This document shows, one piece after another, positions 1 to 12,290 of a DNA stretch of 12,290 nt. The stretch is from the IMG/VR virus record IMGVR_UViG_2585427748_000007, positions 1-12,290 of that record; one strand, given 5' to 3'. The stretch comes from a virus (taxonomy: Duplodnaviria; Heunggongvirae; Uroviricota; Caudoviricetes). The notes below the pieces were generated by a model. It was not told the DNA's origin. It made no database searches and was given only the letters and a program-made list of their open reading frames with translations. The position numbers were made by a program, and so were the translations under genes. Each line of letters begins with the position of its first letter. The stretch's first letter is position 1.

Positions 1-218
1 ATATTGTCCAGGTCGCGACGACGCTTATCCGGTGGCTCTGCAATCACCTTTATCGCCAGCCTTCCGGACAGGCTTAATTTCAGCCGCTGCTGGCGAACAA
101 TAAGCGCCACAGCCCGGCGATAACGCTTTCCCTCCTCCGAGATAAAATATGTGCTGCCACGGCGTCGCCAGTAAGTGTTCACCGTCGGCGGGTAAGGTAA
201 AACCAAATCTATGAGCAT
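1..218 (-). CDS. rusA: RusA-like Holliday junction resolvase, N-terminal 72 codons; gene runs off the window edge
   Basis: Minus-strand frame absent from the ORF track because it has no in-window stop. ATG at 218..216 follows AAGAGG. Translation MLIDLVLPYPPTVNTYWRRRGSTYFISEEGKRYRRAVALIVRQQ...AEPPDKRRRDLDN shows the RusA hallmarks (LP.PPS.N.Y and PD.RRRDLDN). It starts 13 nt after the DUF968 stop. Confidence 0.7.
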   Translation of the reverse strand, partial: MLIDLVLPYPPTVNTYWRRRGSTYFISEEGKRYRRAVALIVRQQRLKLSLSGRLAIKVIAEPPDKRRRDLDN

Positions 219-230
219 CAGTCACCTCTT

Positions 231-1277
231 TTACCCAAGCACGCCAGTTGCAAAGGCGTGATCAAGAAAACGAAAAATTAAATCAACCTGAGAACCATGC
301 TTTTCTTCGAACGCCAGCGGATCCGCATGAAGCTCGTTGTGATGCTCCCGACACAGCGGTAGCGTGAAAATATCGTGAGATTTTGTCCCCATTCCGCCCT
401 GACCATGACCAATCAGGTGATGGGGATCGTCGGCTGGCTTACCACAACACGCACACGGCTGTGTCTTTACCCAGCGCGTATATTTCTCATTTACCCAACG
501 GCGACGTTTAGGTCGCTTCATTAAAGATTCCGGAGACTCCGGATCAACAGCAATGCTGACCACCGTCTTTTCCTGTGGCGGGGTTTGCTGGTGGGCGTGA
601 GGCAGCGGCGCAAGATTTTTTGTGCGCTGCTTCAGTATGCTGGTGGCGGTCTGCTCTCCCGGTACGATGTCGCTTTCACGGTACATTGAGCGGATTTTTT
701 CCGCACGCAACCCCAGCGAACGACGTAATACCGCTTCCGGTAGCGCGTCCGCCACCTGATTGCGGACCGCCCACCAGGATAATTCAGCCAGCGATAATTC
801 CCGCTCCTGCGTGCCATTCATTGCATGGCGTATGACGTCAATCATCCATGCTGACAGGTTTTGGTGAGCAAGTTGCCCGAGTGATTCGGAAGTCTGGTCA
901 CGCAGCTGGTTGTCGCAGTGCCAGCACAACACCATCGCGCCGGTACCGTAACGATGTATGACGGTTTCACTGTGATGGTAGTCACCATGAGGCCACTGGC
1001 AGGATTTGACATGACGCAGGAGCCAGTCAGACAGTGCACCAGCACCGCCTGCAGCGCGAATCACCCGTTCGTTGCTGAAAAATGACAGTAATGATTTATC
1101 TTCCGCCAGCGGCTGGCGAACGGCAGGAACGACTCCAGACGGCAGCCCGCGCATGCTTTTCGGTTCAGGCTCCACCAGCACTCGAGGGTTATGAAATACC
1201 TGCATGGATTCACGGCCCGGCTTAAGGACCACCAGCCCGAACTCCGGTACCAGAACAGGTCGAAGTAATACCCGCAC
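231..1277 (-). CDS. DUF968 family phage protein (YdfU-like, HNH-like Cys/His-rich C-terminus)
   Basis: 348-codon ORF. Start codon is GTG (1277..1275) with GGAGG 4 nt upstream. C-terminal segment QPCACCGKPADDPHHLIGHGQGG...LCREHHNELH resembles DUF968 proteins of lambdoid nin regions. Family assignment is from memory. Confidence 0.6.
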   Translation of the reverse strand: MRVLLRPVLVPEFGLVVLKPGRESMQVFHNPRVLVEPEPKSMRGLPSGVVPAVRQPLAEDKSLLSFFSNERVIRAAGGAGALSDWLLRHVKSCQWPHGDYHHSETVIHRYGTGAMVLCWHCDNQLRDQTSESLGQLAHQNLSAWMIDVIRHAMNGTQERELSLAELSWWAVRNQVADALPEAVLRRSLGLRAEKIRSMYRESDIVPGEQTATSILKQRTKNLAPLPHAHQQTPPQEKTVVSIAVDPESPESLMKRPKRRRWVNEKYTRWVKTQPCACCGKPADDPHHLIGHGQGGMGTKSHDIFTLPLCREHHNELHADPLAFEEKHGSQVDLIFRFLDHAFATGVLG

Positions 1278-1278
1278 G

Positions 1279-1557
1279 TTACCTCCAGATGCGTTGCTGA
1301 TATGTGCGGGACGGACGCGGTGGGCGTTCGGAATAAGGGAGTCTGACGTAGATTATCCAGTGACGATAATCGAGGGTGAGGGCTTTCTTAACCTCGTATC
1401 CGCGCCTGCGGTAACACTGAATCAGCCATTCAGCCTGTTCTTCGGTGCAGGGGTCGTGCTGATACCAGTCAGATTTGAATGCATGAGAACGCCGCCCGTG
1501 CCTGCTGGCAAAGACGGCTGAATTATCAGAATTGTATGGTTTGGTATCGTGCGCCAT
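1279..1557 (-). CDS. hypothetical phage protein (92 aa)
   Basis: ORF-track start at 1638 is TTG and would overlap the upstream terminator hairpin. First ATG is at 1557..1555 (MAHDTKPYNS...). Its TAA stop lies 1 nt before the DUF968 GTG start. Ribosome-binding site is weak. Confidence 0.45.
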   Translation of the reverse strand: MAHDTKPYNSDNSAVFASRHGRRSHAFKSDWYQHDPCTEEQAEWLIQCYRRRGYEVKKALTLDYRHWIIYVRLPYSERPPRPSRTYQQRIWR

Positions 1558-1625
1558 CTGTTTTCTCTGCTGGCGCAGCAGGTGCCAGTTGTTCAGGCTG
1601 GCGTGTGGATTGTAAACCAGAATGC

Positions 1626-1655
1626 CAGGAAAAAACAAAACCCGCGAAGCGGGTT
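1626..1655 (-). terminator. rho-independent terminator after the restriction endonuclease gene
   Basis: Stem AACCCGC (1639-1645), loop GAA, stem GCGGGTT (1649-1655). On the minus strand the hairpin is followed by TTGTTTTTTCC. It sits 73 nt downstream of the endonuclease stop. Confidence 0.5.
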
Positions 1656-1727
1656 AGTAAAAATGTACTGAAGTCAATGACGTGCCATCACAGTTAAAAT
1701 ATGACAGACTCTATTTACGTAGAGATG

Positions 1728-2606
1728 TCAGACTGCAAGATCCAAGGGAAGATCAGAAATATCCTTTAATCTTTTACCATTAACCATCACGGAAAGCATG
1801 TCAGCTGCATCGCTGAGCCCCAGTATTTCAACTGCTGATATAAGTTCATAAAGCGCAAAATGATACACGCAATCTATATCACCAGTACCAAGAGCAATAG
1901 ACGCCAGACGACTTGGAGTAGGCTCAGCAGTAACAACCATTACATGAGGGAGATTTCCCTTACGGTTGCGAATAAGATTTAATGCCTCAGAACGAGCATT
2001 CTGGGCCCGGTCGCTTCTTATTGTCCATTTGCAGGAAATACTTGCGTGTAATATTGGTTTCCCACCATTCGAACTCCTGAGAGCTGACATGCGGGTAACA
2101 GAATCATCCACCAGTAATTCAGGACTGTTGATAACTTGATCACATTCAGGTTCTCTTTCAACAATAATATCTGGTGAAATCGTATAATCACTCCCCAGTG
2201 CAGCAGCTAGCTGAGGATTACTTTTTGCAGCACTATCCAATGCTATAAGATGGGCATATTGTTCATATTTAGCTATCTCTAATCTGTTTCTACCAGAAAC
2301 CTGATGTACATTCCATTTTCCAGGGCGTAAGTGGCTGAGTTTAAAAAAGGTTTTTTCTATAAACTCTGCGCAGATACTCTCAAACTGATTACCAGATGTT
2401 TGCCCTGCAACACGTTCACCAATCGTTTCAGCCTGCAAGAAGCGAGCAATTTCTCTTGCTATAGCTTTACTGTTTTTGTTACTGCTATCTGCGTTACTAA
2501 CAACTCCGGCAGTATTAATTGTGAGCGTATTCAGTAACAATTGGGCATGAAACTCCTTTCTGGCTTCAGCAAAACCAACTATGCTGTCAACCAAATCTCC
2601 ATTCAT
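1728..2606 (-). CDS. Type II restriction endonuclease, NgoMIV/Cfr10I/Bse634I-like (292 aa)
   Basis: Start chosen at ATG 2606..2604 (MNGDLVDS...), 13 nt after the methyltransferase stop, preceded by AAGGAAATCCAGAA. Contains ISPDIIVERE and SCKWTIRSDRAQNARSE, i.e. a PD...S-x-K...E arrangement with K-to-E spacing of 14, as I recall for the Cfr10I/NgoMIV active site. Family call is from motif memory, not a search. Confidence 0.6.
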   Translation of the reverse strand: MNGDLVDSIVGFAEARKEFHAQLLLNTLTINTAGVVSNADSSNKNSKAIAREIARFLQAETIGERVAGQTSGNQFESICAEFIEKTFFKLSHLRPGKWNVHQVSGRNRLEIAKYEQYAHLIALDSAAKSNPQLAAALGSDYTISPDIIVEREPECDQVINSPELLVDDSVTRMSALRSSNGGKPILHASISCKWTIRSDRAQNARSEALNLIRNRKGNLPHVMVVTAEPTPSRLASIALGTGDIDCVYHFALYELISAVEILGLSDAADMLSVMVNGKRLKDISDLPLDLAV

Positions 2607-2619
2607 TTCTGGATTTCCT

Positions 2620-3744
2620 TCAGGCTGCTTGACTATTCTTACTGATGTTATTCTTATACCGTCCCTGCAAAACTCCATACACATATTGTGCGATTTTTGC
2701 CGCAAATAGCGGTGGAACAGCATTCCCGATCTGCTTTGCAATCTCAGTTTTTGAACCGGTAAAAATGAAATTATCAGGAAAAGACATTAATCTCGCTGCC
2801 TCACGATGAGTTATTGGCCGATCCTCTTCCGGATGTAAATATCGCCCTTTCTCCGGTTTGAAAAACTCAGTACGAATCGTTACTGAAGGTCTGTCCCACC
2901 ACAGACGTCCAAACAAATCGGTCCCTCCAGATTTCTTTTTTAGCCAGCACGCCGGGGTTATATCAGGTCTTTTTTTCTGTAAATCGAAACGGTTACCTCC
3001 TGGTGGAACCGCTTTATATCGCTCCAGAGAAACAGGTGTGGGATTACGCCCAAAATGTAAGTTCAGCGGAGGAAGTTCATTACGAATATCAGTTCCAACA
3101 GGAGCAGGTAAGTCACCAATTGCATCACGCGTACAGACCCATTCAGGCAAAGCGACATCCTTATCAGGGGAACGATGCGTTGGTGCTGGCGGGAACGCCG
3201 GAATACTATGCACATCGAAGAGTTCTCGTTTGATACCGATTGCTATCGTTCGTTTTCTTGTCTGAGGTACTCCATAGTCAGCAGTATTCAACACCATTGG
3301 ATTAAGCAGAATAAAGCCCATGGATTTCGCTCTAAACGTAATGTCCGCAAACTCATCGCTTATCAGCAATCCGGGGACATTTTCCATGACGAACATACAA
3401 GCCCTTGAACGCTCAATGACATCCATATAAGGCTCCCACAATGCTCTTCGGTGATCACCATAACGATTCTTATTTAATAAACTGAATCCCTGACACGGGG
3501 GGCCACCTATGACCACATCAGCCTCAGGAACAGTATTGCTGGATGCCCACTCCTCAATATTTGCCTGAACTCCATGCAAACCAAAATTGGCATTGTAGGT
3601 ATTTATAGCTGCAGCATTATTATCAATAGCAAGGATACTTTCAAAGTAGTCAGACATCTCTCCATGAAGAAAACCATAAGATAATCCACCTGCCCCACAA
3701 AAGAGGTCTATCACTCTGAATTTATTTAATTCTTTCATCCGCAT
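2620..3744 (-). CDS. DNA (cytosine-5)-methyltransferase (374 aa)
   Basis: Canonical C5-MTase motifs in order: I FCGAGGLSYGF, IV GGPPCQGFS, VI FVMENVPGL, VIII GVPQTRKRTIAIG, X QIGNAVPP. ATG at 3744 with GAGG 7 nt upstream. Confidence 0.85.
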   Translation of the reverse strand: MRMKELNKFRVIDLFCGAGGLSYGFLHGEMSDYFESILAIDNNAAAINTYNANFGLHGVQANIEEWASSNTVPEADVVIGGPPCQGFSLLNKNRYGDHRRALWEPYMDVIERSRACMFVMENVPGLLISDEFADITFRAKSMGFILLNPMVLNTADYGVPQTRKRTIAIGIKRELFDVHSIPAFPPAPTHRSPDKDVALPEWVCTRDAIGDLPAPVGTDIRNELPPLNLHFGRNPTPVSLERYKAVPPGGNRFDLQKKRPDITPACWLKKKSGGTDLFGRLWWDRPSVTIRTEFFKPEKGRYLHPEEDRPITHREAARLMSFPDNFIFTGSKTEIAKQIGNAVPPLFAAKIAQYVYGVLQGRYKNNISKNSQAA

Positions 3745-3922
3745 CCATATGCCTCAGATTAATGTTGAGCGTCTTACAGGACGCGTAATGTTAACTGGGG
3801 CTTTCTCTATCTGCCTTTTGGTGTTCATGCCTGAGGCAGACAGCCTCAGGCACCCGCAGCAATTCTACTTAACTCACGTCACCTCGCCAATATGAAATCA
3901 ATCAGAAAGGTGATCCATAAAA

Positions 3923-4609
3923 TCACTCCTTCTCTTCTTTTCCGTAGTGGAGTTGGCCAATTTTGATAAGAGGGCGTCCCTGAGATTTGCGGTGTAGATT
4001 GGTATCGCGCAGAGAATACACACAGCCACAATATTCCTGCTGATAGAATTTTTCGCGCTTGCTGATTTCAATCATACGGGACGAGCCGCCCTGCTTGCGC
4101 CAGTTATAATCCCAGTACACCATACCCGGATAATGCGCAACAGCTCGCCGCCCACACTCGTTAACCTGCTGCATATTTTTCCAGCGTGAAATGCCCAGTG
4201 AACTGCTGATCACACTGAAACCATTTTCAGCAGCGTACAACGCTGTCCGCTCAAAACGCATGTCAAAACACATGGTACAACGGATCCCCCTCTCAGGCTC
4301 CCATTCCATTCCTTTGGCACGTTCAAACCAGTTGTCGGTGTCGTAATCAGCATCGATAAACGGCACGCCGTGTTGTTCAGCAAAGCGAATATTTTCATCC
4401 TTACGAATTAAATACTCTTTCTGAGGATGAATGTTCGGGTTGTAGAAAAAGATGGTGTAGTCGATTCCCGAGGCCTGAAGCGCCTCCATCACTTCACCGG
4501 AACATGGAGCACAGCAAGAGTGCAGTAGTAGTTTGTTTGCCCCGTTTGGGAGTTCCAATTTAGGCCGTTTGAAATCAGCAATAGTCATAAATATTTTTAT
4601 TGGGGTCAT
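3923..4609 (-). CDS. QueH-like (DUF208) putative epoxyqueuosine reductase-family protein (228 aa)
   Basis: N-terminal [13 protein letters not shown] plus downstream CTMC and C-terminal YCGCVYS Cys motifs, matching my recollection of the DUF208/QueH Fe-S signature. Start could be ATG 4609 or ATG 4588; neither has a strong ribosome-binding site. Confidence 0.55.
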
Positions 4610-4762
4610 GAAAATAGCACAGAGTGTAGCATCAGAGCAGGGCTATCGGGAATATATGTCTAAATCTGGTAATATCTGGTTTTGACGCAAAGCGGACAAC
4701 CACGCTGGCTCTACCCTGCGCCATGAAAATGTCAATTCACATCTGAACTAATGCTCTTTAAT

Positions 4763-4766
4763 CTAG
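4763..4766. repeat. IS5 target-site duplication CTAG (left copy)
   Basis: CTAG directly abuts the IS5 terminal inverted repeat. The same tetranucleotide flanks the other end at 5963-5966. IS5 makes 4-bp duplications at YTAR targets. Confidence 0.8.
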
Positions 4767-5962
<1,196 letters not shown>

Positions 5963-5966
5963 CTAG
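5963..5966. repeat. IS5 target-site duplication CTAG (right copy); also supplies the TAG stop of the adjacent gene
   Basis: CTAG immediately outside the IS5 inverted repeat. On the minus strand, 5965..5963 reads TAG, the stop codon of the 131-aa gene. Confidence 0.8.
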
Positions 5967-6358
5967 TAACGTCTAAAATACCTAACATTTCCTTGATAAA
6001 ATGTCAGTACACGCTGCATAGCTTCGCTCTTCCGGCACTCGCGACAGATTATATTCAGGCGCCTGTCGTAGCGGCGTATTTCTCCGTCTGGTAACTTTCG
6101 AATCAGTGTCGGGTCAGCAGCCTTCTCCGGTGTCTTACGCCATACGCGATACGCCTGCTCTGATGGAAATACCCCGCAATCACAGAGCCAGACATCACCA
6201 CTGGCCGCAAGCGCACCAGATAAACGACGAATAGCGGTCTTACTGACACCCGTTTTATCTGCCAGTTGTCGAAAAGTTTCTCGTCCGCTCAGGCGCACGA
6301 ATTCCACAATGCGCGCCTTCACTTCTTCCCGCTCTTCTGGTGTAAATACTTTTGCCAT
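5963..6358 (-). CDS. hypothetical phage protein with HTH-like segment and Cys cluster (131 aa)
   Basis: ORF-track start at 6373 is TTG. ATG at 6358..6356 (MAKVFTPEE...) follows GGAGG with a 5-nt spacer. Contains TFRQLADKTGVSKTAIRRL (HTH-like) and CDC...CRECR. Stop codon lies in the IS5 duplication. Confidence 0.5.
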   Translation of the reverse strand: MAKVFTPEEREEVKARIVEFVRLSGRETFRQLADKTGVSKTAIRRLSGALAASGDVWLCDCGVFPSEQAYRVWRKTPEKAADPTLIRKLPDGEIRRYDRRLNIICRECRKSEAMQRVLTFYQGNVRYFRRY

Positions 6359-6373
6359 AAGCGCCTCCGGCAA

Positions 6374-7144
6374 TCACTTTTCCGACACAATACGACCGGA
6401 TGAATCGACAATCTGTCGAACAATATCCCGGTGCTTGTACAGCTCCCGCAGCGCGGCGCAGACTCGCTCCCACTTCTGAACCTGACCTTTTGCCCGGCGC
6501 AGCTCGCGGTTAGCCACATGCAGCGATGGTAAAATCAGACCATCCGGATGTTTTCTGGTGAACGACGGCTGTGACTGCACTGTGACCGCCACACTTTCAG
6601 TTTTTATTTCTTCCTGTGTTTCCGCTTCCCGGACAGGTAACGCAATACCTGCTGGCTGAGGAATGGCTTTACCATCCGTTTCCGCTACGGATGCAGCTTC
6701 CGGCTCTGCCGGTAAATCAGCGCCCGGTATGCAGTAACGAAATTTACCGTTCTGATTTACGCGTGCCAGGCGCCCCGTTGCTGTTACGACCGCCAACGTG
6801 GAAGCAACCTTGCGAATGCTAACACCGAACTTATCCGCCAGTTCCTCACACGTTTTAGCCCCATCCTGACAGATAAACTCAATCATCATGTCCGCGGTAA
6901 CTTTTTGTTCGACCTCCCCGGTCAGCATATCCTGTGCTTCAGATTTTACTGGCCGCTCTTCGGTTACCCGGGATTCACCTTCGCCAGCCAGAAACCAGGT
7001 GTGACCAGTTTTATCAACGACGCCATTTCTTTTGAGTTCCCACAGCTCGTTGACAGCCTCTTCACGACTGATTCCAAGGCGAGCTGCCACCACATGTGAA
7101 GAGGCTTTTTTCAGTGCTTTCAGTGCGTCAAATACGGTTTCCAT
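6374..7144 (-). CDS. hypothetical phage protein with two winged-helix-like segments (256 aa)
   Basis: ORF-track start at 7162 is TTG. ATG at 7144..7142 (METVFDALK...) follows GGAGGA. Its TGA stop is 15 nt upstream of the ATG of the 131-aa gene. Function not recognised. Confidence 0.5.
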   Translation of the reverse strand: METVFDALKALKKASSHVVAARLGISREEAVNELWELKRNGVVDKTGHTWFLAGEGESRVTEERPVKSEAQDMLTGEVEQKVTADMMIEFICQDGAKTCEELADKFGVSIRKVASTLAVVTATGRLARVNQNGKFRYCIPGADLPAEPEAASVAETDGKAIPQPAGIALPVREAETQEEIKTESVAVTVQSQPSFTRKHPDGLILPSLHVANRELRRAKGQVQKWERVCAALRELYKHRDIVRQIVDSSGRIVSEK

Positions 7145-7177
7145 TAATATTTCCTCCGACAAAATCGTTTCTCAGAT

Positions 7178-7840
7178 TCAAATAAAACCAGCTGCCTTCC
7201 GGCGTTCGTATTCCTGTTTCAGCCGTTCAATTGGCGTTGGCCCTTGCGGGTGTTTCGCCCCTTCCAGTTGTCGTCGCACTGGCGGAACACTCATCCCGTT
7301 ACCAACATGCTTTGCCCATTTCGTCAGTTGCCGTTCCGCAAGTCGTTTTAACTCACCCTGCGTCATCTGGCGCTCAATCCCTCTGGTACGCATTTCGAGG
7401 CAGATGTGGTACAGCACAGGCTGTGGCCACGGGTATTTATCACTCCCGTCGTATCGCCAGGATTCATTGCGCCAGCGCCGGTACTCTTCCATCACTGCAT
7501 CCACCGTAAGACCAAATGGATTTGCCCCACTCTCCGAAATCAGTGCAACAAACTCAGCCAGGTCCGGGGGCCACGTTTCACCCGCCCGGCAGCGGTCCAT
7601 GCACTGACGGCAGACCAGCCGGATTTGCTGTTCAGTCATCGCGCCAATCTGGGCAATCCAGAGCTTCGAAGGTGCGGCCCCGTTCTTCTGTGTCCAGCGG
7701 TTCGAATACACCTCCCCCATAAGCTCCCACAGCTTCCAGGCCGTTTCCGTTGCTGATAAATCCGTTGTCACGTTCCCACTGTTCGCGTGCTGCCCGGATT
7801 TCCTGAACTGCCCGTGATGCCGTGCCACCTGATGCTGCAT
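7178..7840 (-). CDS. replication protein P-like (helicase loader), lambda P family
   Basis: Recalled similarity to lambda P: GETWPPDLAEFVAL vs PFLPSPGQFVAW, YPWPQPVLYHICLEMR vs YPWKSNAHYWLVTNLYQNMR, ELKRLAERQL vs ELRRKAADEL. ATG 7840 has AAGGGGG upstream. The N-terminal 209 nt overlap the O-like ORF out of frame; an alternative start ATG 7639 forms ATGACTGA with the O-like stop. Confidence 0.6.
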   Translation of the reverse strand: MQHQVARHHGQFRKSGQHANSGNVTTDLSATETAWKLWELMGEVYSNRWTQKNGAAPSKLWIAQIGAMTEQQIRLVCRQCMDRCRAGETWPPDLAEFVALISESGANPFGLTVDAVMEEYRRWRNESWRYDGSDKYPWPQPVLYHICLEMRTRGIERQMTQGELKRLAERQLTKWAKHVGNGMSVPPVRRQLEGAKHPQGPTPIERLKQEYERRKAAGFI

Positions 7841-8648
7841 GGCTTACCCCCTTGCTGACTGGTTTTACCTGTGCCCTGACGTGCTGCACGTGGCGGGCAA
7901 ATTTCTGCTCCCACTGAACCTGCGTGAAAACCTTCCCCTCCGCCATCCAGTAATCCCGGAATGCGGCAAGCTCTGCAGGTGTAAATTCCGGCTCAGGCAG
8001 AGCCATACCCCACACTGCTGCCCGTTGTCGAAAATCCGACGACGGCTGCCAGACAGTAGTCATCGAAAATTTCCCGATCGGTTCGCTCAGGCCGTCCAGG
8101 TATTCAGGTTCGGCTGTCTGCAACGGCGCACCATGCGACTCACCGGTTGGAGCACTCTCGCGCATGCGCGCGTTATGTGTGGGGTTTAATTCTGTATCTG
8201 TATCTTTATCTGTCGTGACTTGTCGTGACATGTGCGTGACATTTCGTGACGCGCCGTGACAATCGCCATTTTGTTCCCGCTTTCTTTCCCTCTCACGCTG
8301 CGCCCTCTTGCGCTCTGCCGGAGATTTTGCGGTTTGCGAAATATTGCCGTTGTCCTCTTTAAGCACCTGGCGTTTTTCCCATCCAGTGATTAAATCACCA
8401 TCAAGTACCCGCCCCTGCATCGTCTGCAAAATTGAATCAATTACCTCTTCTGTCACGTCGAGCGCACTTGCCAAATCTTCTGTCGTGACATCAATGTGAC
8501 CTCGCGTGACATTTCGTGACGCGCTCACCAGGAGGTGGATATACACTGCCATCACTGTTGCAATTGGCTGCCCTGACACCCTGGCAATTGTTCGCCACTT
8601 AGGGTCATTTGGCATGTCATGCCATAATCTGAGCCAGGCGTTAGCCAT
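7632..8648 (-). CDS. phage replication initiator (O-like) containing internal iterons
   Basis: 338 codons from ATG 8648..8646 (MANAWLRL...), preceded by AAGAGGTGA. ORF-track start at 8654 is GTG. Sits in the O position between ydaT and the P-like gene and contains two CGTGAC repeat clusters, as lambda O contains ori. Not sequence-similar to lambda O as far as I can recall. Confidence 0.6.
   Translation of the reverse strand: MANAWLRLWHDMPNDPKWRTIARVSGQPIATVMAVYIHLLVSASRNVTRGHIDVTTEDLASALDVTEEVIDSILQTMQGRVLDGDLITGWEKRQVLKEDNGNISQTAKSPAERKRAQRERERKREQNGDCHGASRNVTHMSRQVTTDKDTDTELNPTHNARMRESAPTGESHGAPLQTAEPEYLDGLSEPIGKFSMTTVWQPSSDFRQRAAVWGMALPEPEFTPAELAAFRDYWMAEGKVFTQVQWEQKFARHVQHVRAQVKPVSKGVSHAASGGTASRAVQEIRAAREQWERDNGFISNGNGLEAVGAYGGGVFEPLDTEERGRTFEALDCPDWRDD
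8191..8260. repeat. iteron cluster 1: five CGTGAC copies at 10-11 bp spacing, preceded by TGTATC/TTTATC repeats
   Basis: CGTGAC at 8214, 8224, 8235, 8245 and 8255 (start positions), helical periodicity. Lies inside the O-like coding region. Confidence 0.55.
8453..8524. repeat. iteron cluster 2: CGTGAC/TGTGAC copies at 10-11 bp spacing plus one inverted copy
   Basis: Copies start at 8484, 8495, 8505 and 8515; inverted GTCACG at 8453. The 21-bp block GCGTGACATTTCGTGACGCGC (8504-8524) is an exact copy of 8234-8254. Confidence 0.55.
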
Positions 8649-8719
8649 ACTCACCTCTTCTGATACCGAATCTTTTTACTCACGAGTTGCCGGAAGCGAT
8701 TCGATATGGCTATTGTCAG

Positions 8720-9145
8720 TCAATGTACTGCCACAGCATTTCCTGCCGGGCCACCACGGTTCATCTGATTGAAACCGGCGATTGCCACTGCGACAAAATC
8801 ATCAGCGTCTCTCACCAGTCGCTCCCGCGTCTCCACCAGCTCCCGAAAATAAGCTGAACTGTGGCTGCGCATTCTGGCCACCAGCAAAGGTGGCATTGCC
8901 TTTTCGATCGCTGGTAACAACGCCTGAATTTTTTCAACTGCATCAGGGGTGTCTTTCTCTACCCAGCGGAAAATTTTCTGGGTATTACGGGCCAGGGCTT
9001 CCGGATGGCTGTCGTCGTACAGTTCCGGGAACGTCATCCCCAGTTCGAAATAAGTCCGGGCTATTTCAGCTGCTGGAACTTTCTCACCGTCTGGATACGC
9101 CCAGGCATTCATTGCCATGCGGATGTGTTCATGCTTGATTTTCAT
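8720..9145 (-). CDS. ydaT: YdaT-like regulator (reported CII functional analogue), 141 aa
   Basis: ATG at 9145..9143 (MKIKHEHIRMAMNAW...), preceded by GGGGGGA. The ORF-track 5' extension is rejected. Position immediately after the Cro-like gene and the MKIKHEHI N-terminus fit the YdaT family as I recall it. Confidence 0.6.
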   Translation of the reverse strand: MKIKHEHIRMAMNAWAYPDGEKVPAAEIARTYFELGMTFPELYDDSHPEALARNTQKIFRWVEKDTPDAVEKIQALLPAIEKAMPPLLVARMRSHSSAYFRELVETRERLVRDADDFVAVAIAGFNQMNRGGPAGNAVAVH

Positions 9146-9404
9146 GAATCCCCCCCGCCTCTGGTTGTGTGTTAGCCTGATACTCGACAGGTAAGCCGTC
9201 GGTTGGGTTGGGATAAGTACTGCCATCAATCTCGTGCGGAGTTACTATCCAGCCTGTTGCTTCGCACCAGCGTAAAATTTTTTTCCCCGTAAGTTTCGCC
9301 CGTCCGGTAATGACATGGCTTACCATCCCTTGGGTTACCCCAACAATTTCAGCAAAATGCTTCTGAGTTATACCGGAATGATGCAAATATTCTCCAAGAT
9401 TCAT
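9129..9404 (-). CDS. ydaS: YdaS-like Cro-type HTH regulator (91 aa)
   Basis: ATG at 9404 with GAGGTGA upstream. HTH-like segment ITQKHFAEIVGVTQGMVSHV. Divergent from paaR2 and overlaps the ydaT start by 17 nt. Confidence 0.6.
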   Translation of the reverse strand: MNLGEYLHHSGITQKHFAEIVGVTQGMVSHVITGRAKLTGKKILRWCEATGWIVTPHEIDGSTYPNPTDGLPVEYQANTQPEAGGIHENQA

Positions 9405-9511
9405 TGTTCACCTCATGTGATGTCATCACGATCACTAATAGCATTGTTATTTTTAAAAGTAAATAGCATCACTATTTCAAAGAGATTAATAATCTTATTA
9501 GAATTGAAGGT
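9405..9511. promoter_or_regulatory. divergent promoter/operator region between ydaS and paaR2 (OR-like)
   Basis: Perfect palindrome GTGATG-T-CATCAC (9417-9429). Two imperfect 7-1-7 sites built on AATAGCA (9437-9451 and 9462-9476), centres 25 bp apart. Putative rightward promoter: -35 TTCAAA (9476-9481), 17-bp spacer, -10 TAGAAT (9499-9504), start about 9511, which would give a near-leaderless paaR2 mRNA. Confidence 0.45.
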
Positions 9512-10012
9512 ATGAAAAGAAAATCCCTGTCAGAGATCGACCTGCAAGCCGCCCAGAGACTGAAAGAAATCTGGACGGCGAAAAAAAATCAACTAGGGTT
9601 AACCCAAGAGCGTGCGGCAGAAATTCTGGGATTTTCGACACAGGGAGCTGTAAGCCATTATCTAAATGGTCAGACACCTTTAAATCTTGAGGCTGTTATC
9701 AAGTTCGCAGGGTTGCTGCAAGTTCCTCCCGAGTCAATCAGACCAGATATGGCCGAGTTGTTACAAATTGTAAGGATGTATCCCCAAGAATCTGGGGAGG
9801 ACAATGTTGTCACTATATCTGCAGATATGGAACAATCGGAAAACGAACTTCCGTTTAATATAGACCCCATGGAGCGGGATTTGCTCCAGACGTTCAGGGC
9901 TTTCCCCAAAGAAGATAAAGAGAAAATGCTTAAGGAAATGAAGGAGAAAAAAGAATCAATTGAAGAAATCGTTGCGCGATGGCTAGCTGCGCAAAAGGGT
10001 CGTCGCGCCTAA
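9512..10012 (+). CDS. paaR2: PaaR2-like XRE-family HTH regulator (CI-like position), 166 aa
   Basis: HTH-like segment LTQERAAEILGFSTQGAVSHYLNG. First gene of a three-gene operon with a 63-aa antitoxin and a ParE toxin, matching the paaR2-paaA2-parE2 organisation reported for E. coli O157 prophages. The GAAGG upstream is only 1 nt from the ATG. Confidence 0.65.
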   Translation: MKRKSLSEIDLQAAQRLKEIWTAKKNQLGLTQERAAEILGFSTQGAVSHYLNGQTPLNLEAVIKFAGLLQVPPESIRPDMAELLQIVRMYPQESGEDNVVTISADMEQSENELPFNIDPMERDLLQTFRAFPKEDKEKMLKEMKEKKESIEEIVARWLAAQKGRRA

Positions 10013-10029
10013 TCTGAGGAGGTAAAAAC

Positions 10030-10221
10030 ATGAGTACAGCCCTTTCCCCGATAATTTCTGAATTTGAAACAGTCGAACAAGAAAACAGCTATAACGAATG
10101 GTTGCGAACCAAAGTGGCAGCAAGCCTCTCAGATCCCCGTCCTGCAATTCCACATGACGAAGTAATGGCTGAAATGGAAAACCTTATTGCTCAATTAGCT
10201 GCAACGAACAGGAGTGAGTAA
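10030..10221 (+). CDS. paaA2: PaaA2-like antitoxin (63 aa)
   Basis: Strong GAGGAGG 7 nt upstream. Small acidic protein. Its TAA stop overlaps the toxin ATG in TAATG. Confidence 0.65.
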   Translation: MSTALSPIISEFETVEQENSYNEWLRTKVAASLSDPRPAIPHDEVMAEMENLIAQLAATNRSE

Positions 10222-10511
10222 TGCTGCCCATTTTATGGCTACCTTCTGCACGTGATGATTTACGTCAGATCGTAGCCTATATTGCTAAGGAAAACCCTCC
10301 CGCTGCACGTAGACTAAAAATACGCATTGAAACATCAGTTTTGTCACTTACTGAACACCCTTATCTGTACCCACCGAGCGAAAGAGTTCCAAGTCTTCGT
10401 GAGATAGTGACTCATCCTAACTACATAATACTTTACCGAGTAACAGCATCTAACATCGAGATCGTAAATGTAGTTCACTCACGAAGACAGTATCCAAACA
10501 AAACCTGTTAA
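10221..10511 (+). CDS. parE2: ParE/RelE-superfamily toxin (ParE2-like), 96 aa
   Basis: Typical ParE size, start translationally coupled to the antitoxin stop, followed by a strong terminator. N-terminus MLPILWLPSARDDLRQIVAYIAKENPPAARRL is ParE-like. Confidence 0.7.
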   Translation: MLPILWLPSARDDLRQIVAYIAKENPPAARRLKIRIETSVLSLTEHPYLYPPSERVPSLREIVTHPNYIILYRVTASNIEIVNVVHSRRQYPNKTC

Positions 10512-10525
10512 TCCTTCCTGTCAAC

Positions 10526-10549
10526 AACCACCTTCGGGTGGTTTTTTTC
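10526..10549 (+). terminator. rho-independent terminator of the paaR2-paaA2-parE2 operon
   Basis: Stem AACCACC, loop TTCG, stem GGTGGTT, then TTTTTT (10544-10549), 15 nt after the parE2 stop. Confidence 0.7.
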
Positions 10550-10559
10550 TTGCCACGAT

Positions 10560-10598
10560 AATAGCACTGCTATTTACATAATTAAATAGTAGTGGTAT
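10560..10598. promoter_or_regulatory. OL-like operator pair upstream of the ydfA-dicB operon
   Basis: Perfect 7-1-7 palindrome AATAGCA-C-TGCTATT (10560-10574) and imperfect AATAGTA-G-TGGTATT (10584-10598), centres 24 bp apart. Same half-site as the sites at 9437-9476. Confidence 0.4.
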
Positions 10599-10780
10599 TG
10601 TTCATTCATCAACCCACCCCGCCCCACAGAACGCCAGGCAATACTTCGAGTTACCCGGCAGTGGTCAGGGGTTAAGTAGCCAGCCCGAGGCGTATGAACA
10701 TGACGGCGGGAACACTTTATATAACAGCGCAGCAGTTTTTTAGTTCCGCTACCCCGGCGTTAAGGGGAAATGAGGTCAGC

Positions 10781-10936
10781 ATGGATACTATCGATCTTGG
10801 CAACAATGAATCTCTGGTGTACGGCGTGTTTCCCAACCAGGACGGCACATTCACCGCGATGACGTATACCAAAAGCAAAACGTTTAAAACCGAAAATGGT
10901 GCCCGTCGCTGGCTGGAAAGAAACTCAGGTGAGTGA
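10781..10936 (+). CDS. ydfA: YdfA-like small protein (51 aa)
   Basis: ATG 10781 with GAGGT upstream (MDTIDLGNNESLVYGVFPNQDG...). First gene of the ydfA-ydfB-ydfC-dicF-dicB arrangement known from Qin. The ORF-track N-terminal extension from 10694 is rejected. Confidence 0.7.
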   Translation: MDTIDLGNNESLVYGVFPNQDGTFTAMTYTKSKTFKTENGARRWLERNSGE

Positions 10937-10937
10937 T

Positions 10938-11066
10938 ATGGATTTCGACACAATCATGGAAAAGGCTTACGAAGAATACTTCGAAGGCCTTGCCGAAGGC
11001 GAAGAAGCTCTCAGCTTCAGTGAGTTTAAACAGGCGCTTTCCAGCTCGGCAAAATCTAACGGCTGA
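10938..11066 (+). CDS. ydfB: YdfB-like small protein (42 aa)
   Basis: Not in the ORF track (under 60 aa). ATG 10938 is 1 nt after the ydfA TGA. Translation MDFDTIMEKAYEEYFEGLAEGEEALSFSEFKQALSSSAKSNG. Confidence 0.65.
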   Translation: MDFDTIMEKAYEEYFEGLAEGEEALSFSEFKQALSSSAKSNG

Positions 11067-11095
11067 TAAGCGAAACAGCACCGCGAGGAATCAGT

Positions 11096-11314
11096 ATGCA
11101 GAAACGAGAACCCGTCATCATCGCGCCAGACTATACCGATGATGAACTTTATGAGTGGATGCACCAGAAAATTAATGCAGCGCAGGATCTGAAATGGGCC
11201 AATGAAGCCAGGGCTAAGCAGGCTGAAAATCTGTCCGCTCTGGAGCAGGATATCACTAATCTGGAAAAAGCAGCGGCATTAAGCATTGCCAGAATGATTA
11301 CATACCCGCGTTAA
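11096..11314 (+). CDS. ydfC: YdfC-like protein (72 aa)
   Basis: ATG 11096 with GAGGAA upstream (MQKREPVIIAPDYTDDELYEWMHQKINAAQ...). Size and position match ydfC of the dicB operon. Confidence 0.7.
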   Translation: MQKREPVIIAPDYTDDELYEWMHQKINAAQDLKWANEARAKQAENLSALEQDITNLEKAAALSIARMITYPR

Positions 11315-11336
11315 TAGCTAACCAACGAGGCTAATA

Positions 11337-11711
11337 ATGGAATTTAAAGATTTACCAATGCAATTCCAGGAAATGGCAGCGAATATAGTTCGTTCCCAAC
11401 TGGCGACTCTTGACCTGAGTACCGTAGAAAAAGAAACCATCGACAATATATCCGGTAACGTACGCCGAGCCTTTATCGGGCTGTACGAAGAGAAGCAGCT
11501 CTCTGATAACCAGGATTTACATGAAAAATACTTTCTGGAATTAATGGACATCATTAATAAAGGATTTGGCTTGTTAATGAAAAAGAAAGGGATTCGAATA
11601 GCTCCCCTTGAAAATCATTTTACAGCAAGCAGTATTAATTCCTGTGATTTAAAGCATCACACATCCGATGGGAAAGTTGAATCAAACAACAAAATATCGA
11701 TTAATCATTAA
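11337..11711 (+). CDS. hypothetical protein (124 aa), AT-rich, inserted between ydfC and dicF
   Basis: ATG 11337 with GAGG 7 nt upstream. Noticeably more AT-rich than its neighbours. No recognisable motifs, acidic, no obvious hydrophobic segments. Confidence 0.5.
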   Translation: MEFKDLPMQFQEMAANIVRSQLATLDLSTVEKETIDNISGNVRRAFIGLYEEKQLSDNQDLHEKYFLELMDIINKGFGLLMKKKGIRIAPLENHFTASSINSCDLKHHTSDGKVESNNKISINH

Positions 11712-12016
11712 TTTATTCACAGGTGAGGTAGAGTGCGTGCGCCGGACACGGATAAGAATCCGGCACTGACAGTTTACTGAAAAGGATATATCCCTGAAAA
11801 GTCAGGGCATAACACGAAAGCGCCCGGAGAAGTTAGTCTCTCTGTATAGGTCGTCGTTAAATTTAATTCGATCGTGCGCTTCCGGTTGTGGCAATCCGCG
11901 AAATGGCGCGGCGGTAAGTATGGCGGGGGTATTTCTTCCCCCCCCGAGGACACCGGGTTGTCAGGTTGACCATACGCTTAAGTGACAACCCCGCTGCAAC
12001 GCCCTCTGTTATCAAT

Positions 12017-12075
12017 TTTCTGGTGACGTTTGGCGGTATCAGTTTTACTCCGTGACTGCTCTGCCGCCCTTTTTA
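12017..12075 (+). ncRNA. dicF: DicF small RNA (ftsZ-targeting sRNA), approximate ends
   Basis: Sequence TTTCTGGTGACGTTTGGCGGTATCAGTTTTACTCCGTGACTGCTCTGCCGCCCTTTTT matches the DicF sequence as I recall it, ending in a GC-rich stem and T-run, and it sits just upstream of dicB. Exact 5' and 3' ends are not determined here. Confidence 0.65.
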
Positions 12076-12243
12076 AAGTGAATTTTGTGATGTGGTGAAT
12101 GCGGCTGAGCGCACGCGGAACAGTTAAAACCAAAAACAGTGTTATGGGTGGATTCTCTGTATCCGGCGTTAATTGTTAACTGGTTAACGTCACCTGGAGG
12201 CACCAGGCACCGCATCACAAAATTCATTGTTGAGGACGCGATA

Positions 12244-12290
12244 ATGGAAACGTTATTACCAAACGTTAATACGTCTGAAGGTTGTTTTGA
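12244..12290 (+). CDS. dicB: DicB cell-division inhibitor, N-terminal fragment (runs off window)
   Basis: ATG 12244 with GAGGA 7 nt upstream. METLLPNVNTSEGCF matches the DicB N-terminus as recalled (K-12 has K at position 2). Confidence 0.7.
   Translation, partial: METLLPNVNTSEGCF

Follow-up and report, generated by a model that had tools for sequence, protein, structure and literature searches.

Repeats on both sides of a regulator-antitoxin-toxin operon suggest a lambda-type immunity switch in a lambdoid prophage of Escherichia coli

How might a lambdoid prophage maintain immunity when its putative repressor has no S24 autocleavage domain and its repressor operon carries a toxin-antitoxin pair? 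The question is raised by a stretch of 12,290 nucleotides of caudoviral DNA (positions 1 to 12,290 of IMG/VR record IMGVR_UViG_2585427748_000007), referred to from this point on as the window, in which an operon for a 166-amino-acid (aa) regulator, a paaA-type antitoxin and a parE-type toxin diverges from a ydaS-like and a ydaT-like gene. The original prediction, made from the window alone, proposed that repeats of the form AATAGCA-N-TGCTATT flank this operon in a lambda-like arrangement of right (OR) and left (OL) operators. The proposal stands, in that motif, register and downstream site pair are conserved across genera. We consider it likely that the locus is a lambda-type immunity switch of a lambdoid (Rac/Qin-like) prophage in which the 166-aa regulator is the analogue of CI.

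Repeats and promoters flanking the regulator operon

The motif AATAGCA-N-TGCTATT, 15 bp long, occurs in four copies, all inside the two non-coding gaps that flank the operon. Between the divergent genes, OR1 (AATAGCATTGTTATT, 9437-9451, one mismatch) overlaps the -10 box of the inferred promoter PR, and OR2 (AATAGCATCACTATT, 9462-9476, two mismatches), whose centre lies 43 bp upstream of the regulator ATG, overlaps the -35 box of PR by 2 bp and that of a PRM-like promoter by 1 bp. Beyond the operon, OL2 (AATAGCACTGCTATT, 10560-10574) is a perfect copy whose final bases are part of the -35 box of a PL-like promoter, and OL1 (AATAGTAGTGGTATT, 10585-10599, two mismatches) overlaps the PL -10 box. 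Three of these positions, all mismatch counts and the first centre-to-centre spacing, 25 bp, are as originally predicted; the fourth site had been placed at 10584-10598, one base too early, and the second spacing is also 25 bp rather than 24. Two elements were absent from that prediction, namely the PL-like promoter overlapping the downstream sites and a degenerate OR3 (ATTAATAATCTTATT, 9485-9499, four mismatches), which lies inside the PRM spacer and abuts the -10 box. The right operator is tripartite, with centres at 9444, 9469 and 9492 and spacings of 25 and 23 bp, and its sites overlap both boxes of PR as well as the -35 box and spacer of PRM. When up to two mismatches are allowed, the motif has four matches against 0.044 expected in 12.3 kb, and the best of 2000 shuffles reached two; at up to three mismatches there are five matches in the window against 0.59 expected, a number reached in 0 of 200 shuffles. 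The repeats are almost certainly real repressor-binding sites.

Two further features of these gaps were noted. A perfect palindrome, AGATTA-A-TAATCT (9483-9495), overlaps the degenerate OR3 but is 3 bp off the 15-bp register, and its counterpart in relatives reads GATTAGTAATC; it may be a by-product of the operator half-sites. A 12-pair 'hairpin' at 10565-10594 (CACTGCTATTTA...TAAATAGTAGTG), flagged by the terminator scan, consists of the facing halves of OL2 and OL1 and was rejected as a terminator.

The comparison drew on 11 loci from Escherichia, Shigella, Citrobacter, Yersinia, Rouxiella, Providencia, Proteus and Arsenophonus, whose regulators keep the sequence TQGAVS(H/Q)Y nearly unchanged; the closest of them (L024, L026 and L027) were drawn from E. 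coli, Shigella and E. albertii loci. In these relatives sites occur about 75, 50 and 27 bp upstream of the regulator ATG, the first two distances being the offsets of the window itself. Opposite the degenerate OR3, the close relatives have ATTAG(C/T)AATCTTATT, and Citrobacter, Providencia and Proteus have ATTAGCAATAC(T/A)A(T/A)T. A second pair of sites, 24-27 bp apart, stands just past the operon terminator in every compared locus, 0.6-1.1 kb downstream, where its upstream site supplies the TT of a TT(G/T)ACA -35 box and its downstream site overlaps the -10 box. Over 88 half-sites the consensus is A-A/t-T-A-G/a-C-A/g; positions 1, 3 and 4 are A, T and A in 98-100% and position 6 is C in 86%. 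At least seven genera keep both motif and register, with divergent non-coding DNA around the sites. The cargo between OR and OL differs among these loci. It includes a toxin-antitoxin pair in the E. coli group, nothing other than a tailed regulator of 153-156 aa in Rouxiella and Yersinia, and a 250-aa regulator with two helix-turn-helix (HTH) domains in Citrobacter; in Providencia and Proteus a regulator of about 250 aa has the same HTH and a longer C-terminus, which is LexA/S24-like as judged by eye.

The promoters are arranged around the sites as follows. The promoter scan found the PRM-like pair TTCAAA-17-TAGAAT on the plus strand at 9476-9504 (-35 box 9476-9481, -10 box 9499-9504), as originally predicted, along with the predicted overlap of OR2 with its -35 box, which amounts to one base. 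The regulator ATG follows the -10 box by 7 nt. Both hexamers are identical in L024, L026, L027 and L003, among which the 7 nt ahead of the ATG vary. Nearly all relatives have a -10-like hexamer 6-7 nt ahead of the regulator ATG, with no conserved or usable Shine-Dalgarno sequence, and the sequence fits the earlier suggestion of a leaderless regulator mRNA, which would start at 9511/9512, that is, at the ATG or one base before it. Counted from such a start, the OR2 centre is at -42/-43. In the related prophage CP-933P of E. coli O157:H7, 5' RACE and N-terminal sequencing showed a leaderless paaR2 message (PMC8630535). The PL-like promoter, TTTACA-17-TATTGT (10573-10601, plus strand, with TG at 10593-10594), was likewise found by the scan and overlaps both OL sites; its position is conserved in all relatives, and its -35 box is TTGACA in Rouxiella, Yersinia, Providencia and Proteus. 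For PR we infer a minus-strand promoter at 9435-9463, made up of a -35 box TTTACT (9463-9458), a 17-bp spacer and an extended -10 element TGcTATTAG (9443-9435). Its layout mirrors that of PL, and relatives have better hexamers at PR, such as TTGACA-16-TAGTAT in L004 and TTGATT-17-TAATAT in L006.

A paralogous locus in E. coli O157:H7 strain 7409 (L002) shows how operators and regulator vary together. Over 8722-9219 and 9882-11064 of the window its DNA is 81-84% identical, and these two blocks comprise ydaT on one side and the regulator tail through paaA, parE and ydfA on the other; no alignment was obtained over the 5' part of ydaS, the intergenic region and the HTH-coding part of the regulator gene. 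Within the latter of these blocks, roughly 45 bp at the OL position have given way to different sequence. In place of AATAGCA sites, of which L002 has none, repeats of the form ACTGT-N9/10-ACAGT stand at both the OR and the OL positions (2844-2880 and 3878-3910 in L002), and its 133-aa regulator begins MMSALEV, with TAAAAT 6 nt ahead of the ATG. By its sequence, L002 is a third PaaR-type immunity variant, neither of the window type nor of the published CP-933P type. OL thus changes together with the DNA-binding domain despite the roughly 0.6 kb of conserved toxin-antitoxin DNA between them, and this joint swap is the strongest evidence at the sequence level that the regulator reads both clusters of sites. 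The two types also meet within single proteins. Regulators of about 244-250 aa (for instance at 4001-4723 of the Citrobacter braakii locus L003, and proteins P0013-P0022) have two different HTHs in tandem and one PaaR-type tail, one HTH being of the lambda-CI-like type of the window and the other of the L002 type. No ACTGT-N-ACAGT repeats were found in the window or in the dual-HTH Citrobacter locus, where the OR and OL sites are of the AATAGCA type alone.

The regulator and its Cro-like neighbor

The regulator gene (9512-10012, plus strand) encodes a lambda-CI-type N-terminal domain joined to a PaaR-type tail. Residues 2-90 are homologous to the N-terminal domain of lambda CI, residues 90-112 form a disordered linker and helices lie within 119-165. 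A phmmer search of the Protein Data Bank returned lambda repressor entries at E-values of 9e-10 to 5e-9 and 38-39% identity, and an AlphaFold model, built on an alignment that left out the L002 sequence, matched 1LMB, 3KZ3 and 1RIO in Foldseek with template modeling (TM) scores of 0.81-0.93 (0.84-0.93 for 1LMB and 3KZ3) and root-mean-square deviations of 1.1-2.1 A. The homology extends to the basic N-terminal arm (KRKS, compared with KKKP in lambda CI). Acidic residues E33 and E37, the former nearly invariant in the family, align with E34 and D38 of lambda, the positive-control residues in contact with sigma region 4. The S24 domain is absent, as the Pfam scan gives HTH_3 and HTH_31 alone and the C-terminus consists of the linker and two helices; RecA induction is therefore not expected, a point likewise noted for PaaR2.

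The last 55 or so residues are homologous to the PaaR-type protein of L002 (47% identity over 87 aa), while the DNA-binding domains of the two proteins are unrelated. By analogy, the helical tail probably supplies the oligomerization needed for cooperativity and possibly for an OL-OR loop of 1.1 kb. The original prediction had called the regulator PaaR2, a name that does not fit: PaaR2 starts MQKKE, while the 166-aa protein starts MKRKS and shares only its C-terminal 55 or so residues with a PaaR-type protein. Identity with paaR2 of CP-933P is ruled out by the N-terminus, the size of the protein, the intergenic length, the repeat consensus and a primer mismatch.

The ydaS-like HTH gene (9129-9404, minus strand; 91 aa; Pfam HTH_3) is the candidate Cro analogue. 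Its product is 42% identical to that of the O157 paralogue and 31% identical to the regulator over 67 aa (E = 1e-7). The recognition regions are alike, GVTQGMVSHVITG in the ydaS-like protein and GFSTQGAVSHYLNG in the regulator, with a common motif TQG-x-VSH, and in L002 the corresponding two proteins likewise have GV-x-QQTV-x-QW in common. Because the recognition motif is common to both, shared operators are likelier than two specificities, and, in keeping with Cro in lambda, the Cro analogue most likely acts at the AATAGCA sites. The earlier suggestion of two distinct DNA-binding specificities is accordingly unlikely, the footprints in CP-933P also being overlapping.

The proposed switch and its alternatives

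The sequence itself shows the sites, how they are conserved and placed, their overlap with promoters, the homology of the domains and the joint variation of operators and DNA-binding domain; binding, activation, a Cro specificity in common with the regulator and looping are the conjectural parts of the following scheme. The regulator would bind as dimers to the 15-bp sites through the half-site A-A/T-T-A-G/A-C-A. On OR1 and OR2 it would silence PR, and with it ydaS-ydaT (Cro/CII-like) and the replication genes, and on OL1 and OL2 it would silence PL and the ydfABC-DicF-dicB cell-division inhibitors. Regulator bound at OR2 may stimulate PRM through the conserved acidic patch E33/E37, and OR3 may provide weak negative autoregulation. 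The leaderless PRM transcript would also carry paaA-parE, in the place taken by rexAB in lambda. The Cro-like protein would compete for the sites of the regulator, YdaT would act as the CII analogue, and the helical C-terminal tail would take the place of the RecA-sensitive S24 domain. An OL-OR loop of 1.1 kb is plausible by analogy.

Several points weigh against this scheme. OR3 has four mismatches in the window and may no longer work, and OR2 and OL1 are each off consensus at two positions. PR, which is the weakest of the promoter assignments, is a weak match with a -10 box TATTAG, and the consensus scan made no call there because the last base of that box is G. The structural model of the regulator is monomeric, has a predicted TM score of 0.48 and is silent on assembly, and the oligomer role of the tail is extrapolated from PaaR2 of CP-933P, although the comparison was made with the O157 paralogue (47%).

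The looping part of the scheme has the most serious competitor, in which OR and OL are real but independent, each pair repressing its own promoter by local cooperativity. Each pair does fully span both the -35 and the -10 box of the promoter it overlaps, and no more is needed for repression; the degeneracy of OR3 in the window leaves little to gain from loop-assisted OR3 occupancy, and relatives differ in their OR-OL distance, which ranges from 0.6 to 1.1 kb. Nevertheless, CP-933P PaaR2 reportedly forms an octamer in solution, as lambda CI does when looped, and the paired OR and OL are conserved whatever the cargo between them. We regard independent operators as a possibility to be kept in view, if a tentative one. 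Further down the scale is the original suggestion that YdaS has an operator of its own, distinct from the AATAGCA sites, in the palindrome GTGATGTCATCAC (9417-9429). The palindrome is present and perfect, as predicted; it follows PR and precedes the ydaS ribosome-binding site, covering roughly positions +1 to +12 of the transcript expected from PR. However, it is absent from L024, L026 and L027, close relatives with an identical YdaS recognition helix (SQGMVSHVITGR), it has no counterpart near PL, and it is one of 12 perfect 6-N-6 palindromes in the window, a number that puts it within chance. The stretch from OR1 to the ydaS ribosome-binding site is also the most variable part of the region, and its predicted RNA fold does not surpass those of shuffled sequences (z = +0.89). 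Since YdaS and the regulator, moreover, have TQG-x-VSH in common and the CP-933P footprints overlap, a separate YdaS site fails as an explanation and is improbable; the palindrome, rejected both as a conserved operator and as an RNA hairpin, is probably incidental.

Still less credit is due to the view that the repeats are non-functional relics, or the AT-rich context of promoters, in a decaying cryptic prophage. The prophage does have an IS5 insertion, other accessory inserts and a degenerate OR3, but the conservation of motif and register across genera amid diverging flanks, and the replacement of both operator patches together with the HTH in L002, make this very improbable. Least credible of all is a classical antitoxin autoregulation, with the PaaA-ParE complex as the binder of the repeats and the HTH regulator in an accessory role. 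Antitoxins do autoregulate most type II toxin-antitoxin operons, as is generally known and also stated in the abstract of PMC8630535. The antitoxin here, however, has 63 aa, matches the PaaA2 family alone in Pfam and has no DNA-binding domain, as is reported for PaaA2 too, and the same operators occur in relatives without toxin-antitoxin genes.

The scheme of a lambda-type switch can also be extended, in a direction that we put forward as speculation and hold to be rather unlikely. The PaaR-type tail could be a general, SOS-independent substitute for S24, forming higher oligomers and closing an OL-OR loop of 0.6-1.1 kb around any cargo, and the 244-aa dual-HTH proteins could be dual-immunity repressors. 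The tail might also link the state of the toxin-antitoxin pair, or an unknown anti-repressor, to immunity, because in E. coli it always travels with paaA-parE while DNA-binding domain and operators swap as a set.

Known switches and other features of the window

The nearest characterized system is the PaaR2/YdaS/YdaT switch with paaA2-parE2 in CP-933P (Sp12) of E. coli O157:H7 (Jurenas et al. 2021, PMC8630535; Prolic-Kalinsek et al. 2023, PMC9986795). There, electrophoretic mobility shift assays and DNase I footprints showed that PaaR2 and YdaS bind overlapping intergenic regions, and both proteins repress a PL promoter that has OL sites (PMC8630535). Low levels of PaaR2 activate PRM, PaaR2 is an octamer in solution, and four inverted repeats are described, with three OR operators overlapping three of the repeats and three OL operators (PMC8630535). 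The window has the same gene order, ydaT-ydaS, divergent regulator-paaA-parE, terminator, PL and ydf/dicB genes, a PaaR-type tail (compared by way of the O157 paralogue L002), a regulator message that would be leaderless, no S24 domain, and two sets of operators, one intergenic and the other at PL beyond the toxin-antitoxin genes. It differs in its DNA-binding domain, which is of the lambda-CI type and starts MKRKS, compared with MQKKE in a PaaR2 of about 15 kDa, in its Cro-like protein (MNLGEY, MTLKEF in CP-933P) and in the length of the intergenic region (107 bp and 97 bp, respectively). The window has three OR and two OL sites, and their motif AATAGCA-N-TGCTATT does not fit the 18-bp inverted repeats of CP-933P PaaR2 (consensus GTTTAGTAA). 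CP-933P also has a strong YdaT operator, OM, at the ydaS/ydaT junction, TTGATT-N6-AATCAA (PMC9986795). At the ydaS stop and ydaT start of the window, 9135-9152 (TTGATTTTCATGAATCCC) has a perfect AATCAA half and another half with two mismatches, the imperfection being due to the ydaS 3' end belonging to a different mosaic segment. Over the whole window this pattern is no commoner than chance predicts, with 7 matches against 8.4 expected.

Likenesses to lambda include the homologous CI N-terminal domain with its conserved acidic patch, OR2 at about -42 of PRM, divergent repressor and cro-like genes, accessory genes co-transcribed with the repressor, an OL/PL region past the terminator that reads in the same direction and a cI-type message that would be leaderless. 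The OR of lambda has spacings of 24 and 23 bp, and the tripartite OR of the window is similar at 25 and 23 bp. Unlike lambda, the window has a regulator without the S24 autocleavage domain, another half-site (TATCACCGC in lambda), sites of 15 rather than 17 bp, two OL sites rather than three, a potential loop of 1.1 kb rather than about 2.3 kb, and Cro and CII analogues of the YdaS and YdaT types. In the Qin prophage of E. coli K-12, dicA and dicC control the ydfABC-dicF-dicB operon. The PL operon of the window contains the same set, ydfA, ydfB, ydfC, DicF and dicB. The repressor comparison was made with phage Rac-SA53, whose 'dicA' product shows 54% identity across the HTH domain and ends in a short helical tail of similar kind; the operators of that phage are related, ATTAG-N5-CTAAT, with different inner bases. 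The window differs from both Qin and Rac-SA53 in having a toxin-antitoxin pair between repressor and PL.

The architecture has already been shown experimentally for the sister prophage CP-933P, in work that also considered a possible loop (Jurenas et al. 2021, PMC8630535), and the window locus does not overturn current understanding. What is new is an immunity type of another kind, with a true DNA-binding domain of the lambda CI sort in its repressor, a 15-bp operator consensus that is defined and conserved across genera, and a modular exchange in which the HTH and both operator patches are swapped as a unit while tail and toxin-antitoxin block stay constant. Searching the text of an incompletely covered literature for the operator strings gave unrelated papers alone. 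The locus is a second, heteroimmune example of a lambdoid switch that carries a toxin-antitoxin pair, and unlike CP-933P it offers an operator consensus that is clean and easy to mutate, while its repressor domain lends itself to direct modeling on the crystal structures of lambda CI with DNA and with sigma. One DNA-binding domain with its operators is found joined to a C-terminus that looks S24-like, to a helical tail, or to the tail and a second HTH, and one tail with its toxin-antitoxin pair is found alongside at least three types of operator. The series constitutes a set of natural experiments on the exchange of immunity specificity and on cooperativity in non-SOS repressors.

DNA comparison shows the window segment to be 99.9% identical to a lambdoid prophage adjoining yccA in E. 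coli JKHS016, and the locus is near-complete in 72 of 5426 complete E. coli genomes, one place (the best) being counted per genome. On the minus strand, the ydaT-like gene (8720-9145; Pfam YdaT_toxin, E = 7e-10), the candidate CII analogue, has a start identical to the ydaT cloning primer of CP-933P. Downstream of the regulator gene, the plus strand carries the paaA-type antitoxin gene (10030-10221; PaaA2, PF21217, E = 1e-21) followed by the parE-type toxin gene (10221-10511; ParE_toxin, PF05016, E = 7e-18), the two sharing an ATGA overlap at 10221. The terminator scan placed an intrinsic terminator of the regulator operon at 10526-10550 (plus strand), and in most relatives the downstream pair of sites likewise comes after a hairpin followed by a T-run. 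The first gene of the PL operon is the ydfA-like gene (10781-10936, plus strand; Pfam DUF1391), with ydfB, ydfC, DicF RNA and dicB 3' of it, as known from the annotation of the near-identical locus L001 and, for DicF, from Rfam. The DicF antisense RNA itself (12018-12069, plus strand; RF00039, 76.7 bits) lies downstream of ydfABC, from which it follows that the PL-like promoter probably controls the DicF/DicB division-inhibitor operon. As that operon encodes the division inhibitors DicF and DicB, loss of repression should be toxic to the host.

An Rfam scan of 9300-10800 found no known RNA families, the matches in the whole window being DicF and a sok antitoxin RNA alone. The latter (3675-3855, minus strand; RF01794, 61 bits against a gathering score of 59) lies just beyond a DNA methyltransferase gene and suggests, from its sequence, a hok/sok-type module beside restriction-modification genes. 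These belong to accessory cargo inside the prophage that spans 1728-5930 of the window, all on the minus strand and named after the L001 annotation: an NgoMIV-family restriction endonuclease (1728-2741), a DNA cytosine methyltransferase (2620-3744), the epoxyqueuosine reductase QueH (3923-4609) and an IS5 transposase (4914-5930). Just downstream of PL lies a non-coding block, 10605-10700, within which CAACCCACCCCGCCCCACAGAA is invariant across immunity types. The segment 10610-10700 (about 90 bp) has matches, mostly at 89-98% identity, in a large share of the 3,725 E. coli genomes matched, K-12 derivatives included, and coincides with no annotated feature or Rfam family. On this sequence pattern, the block could be a conserved PL leader element.

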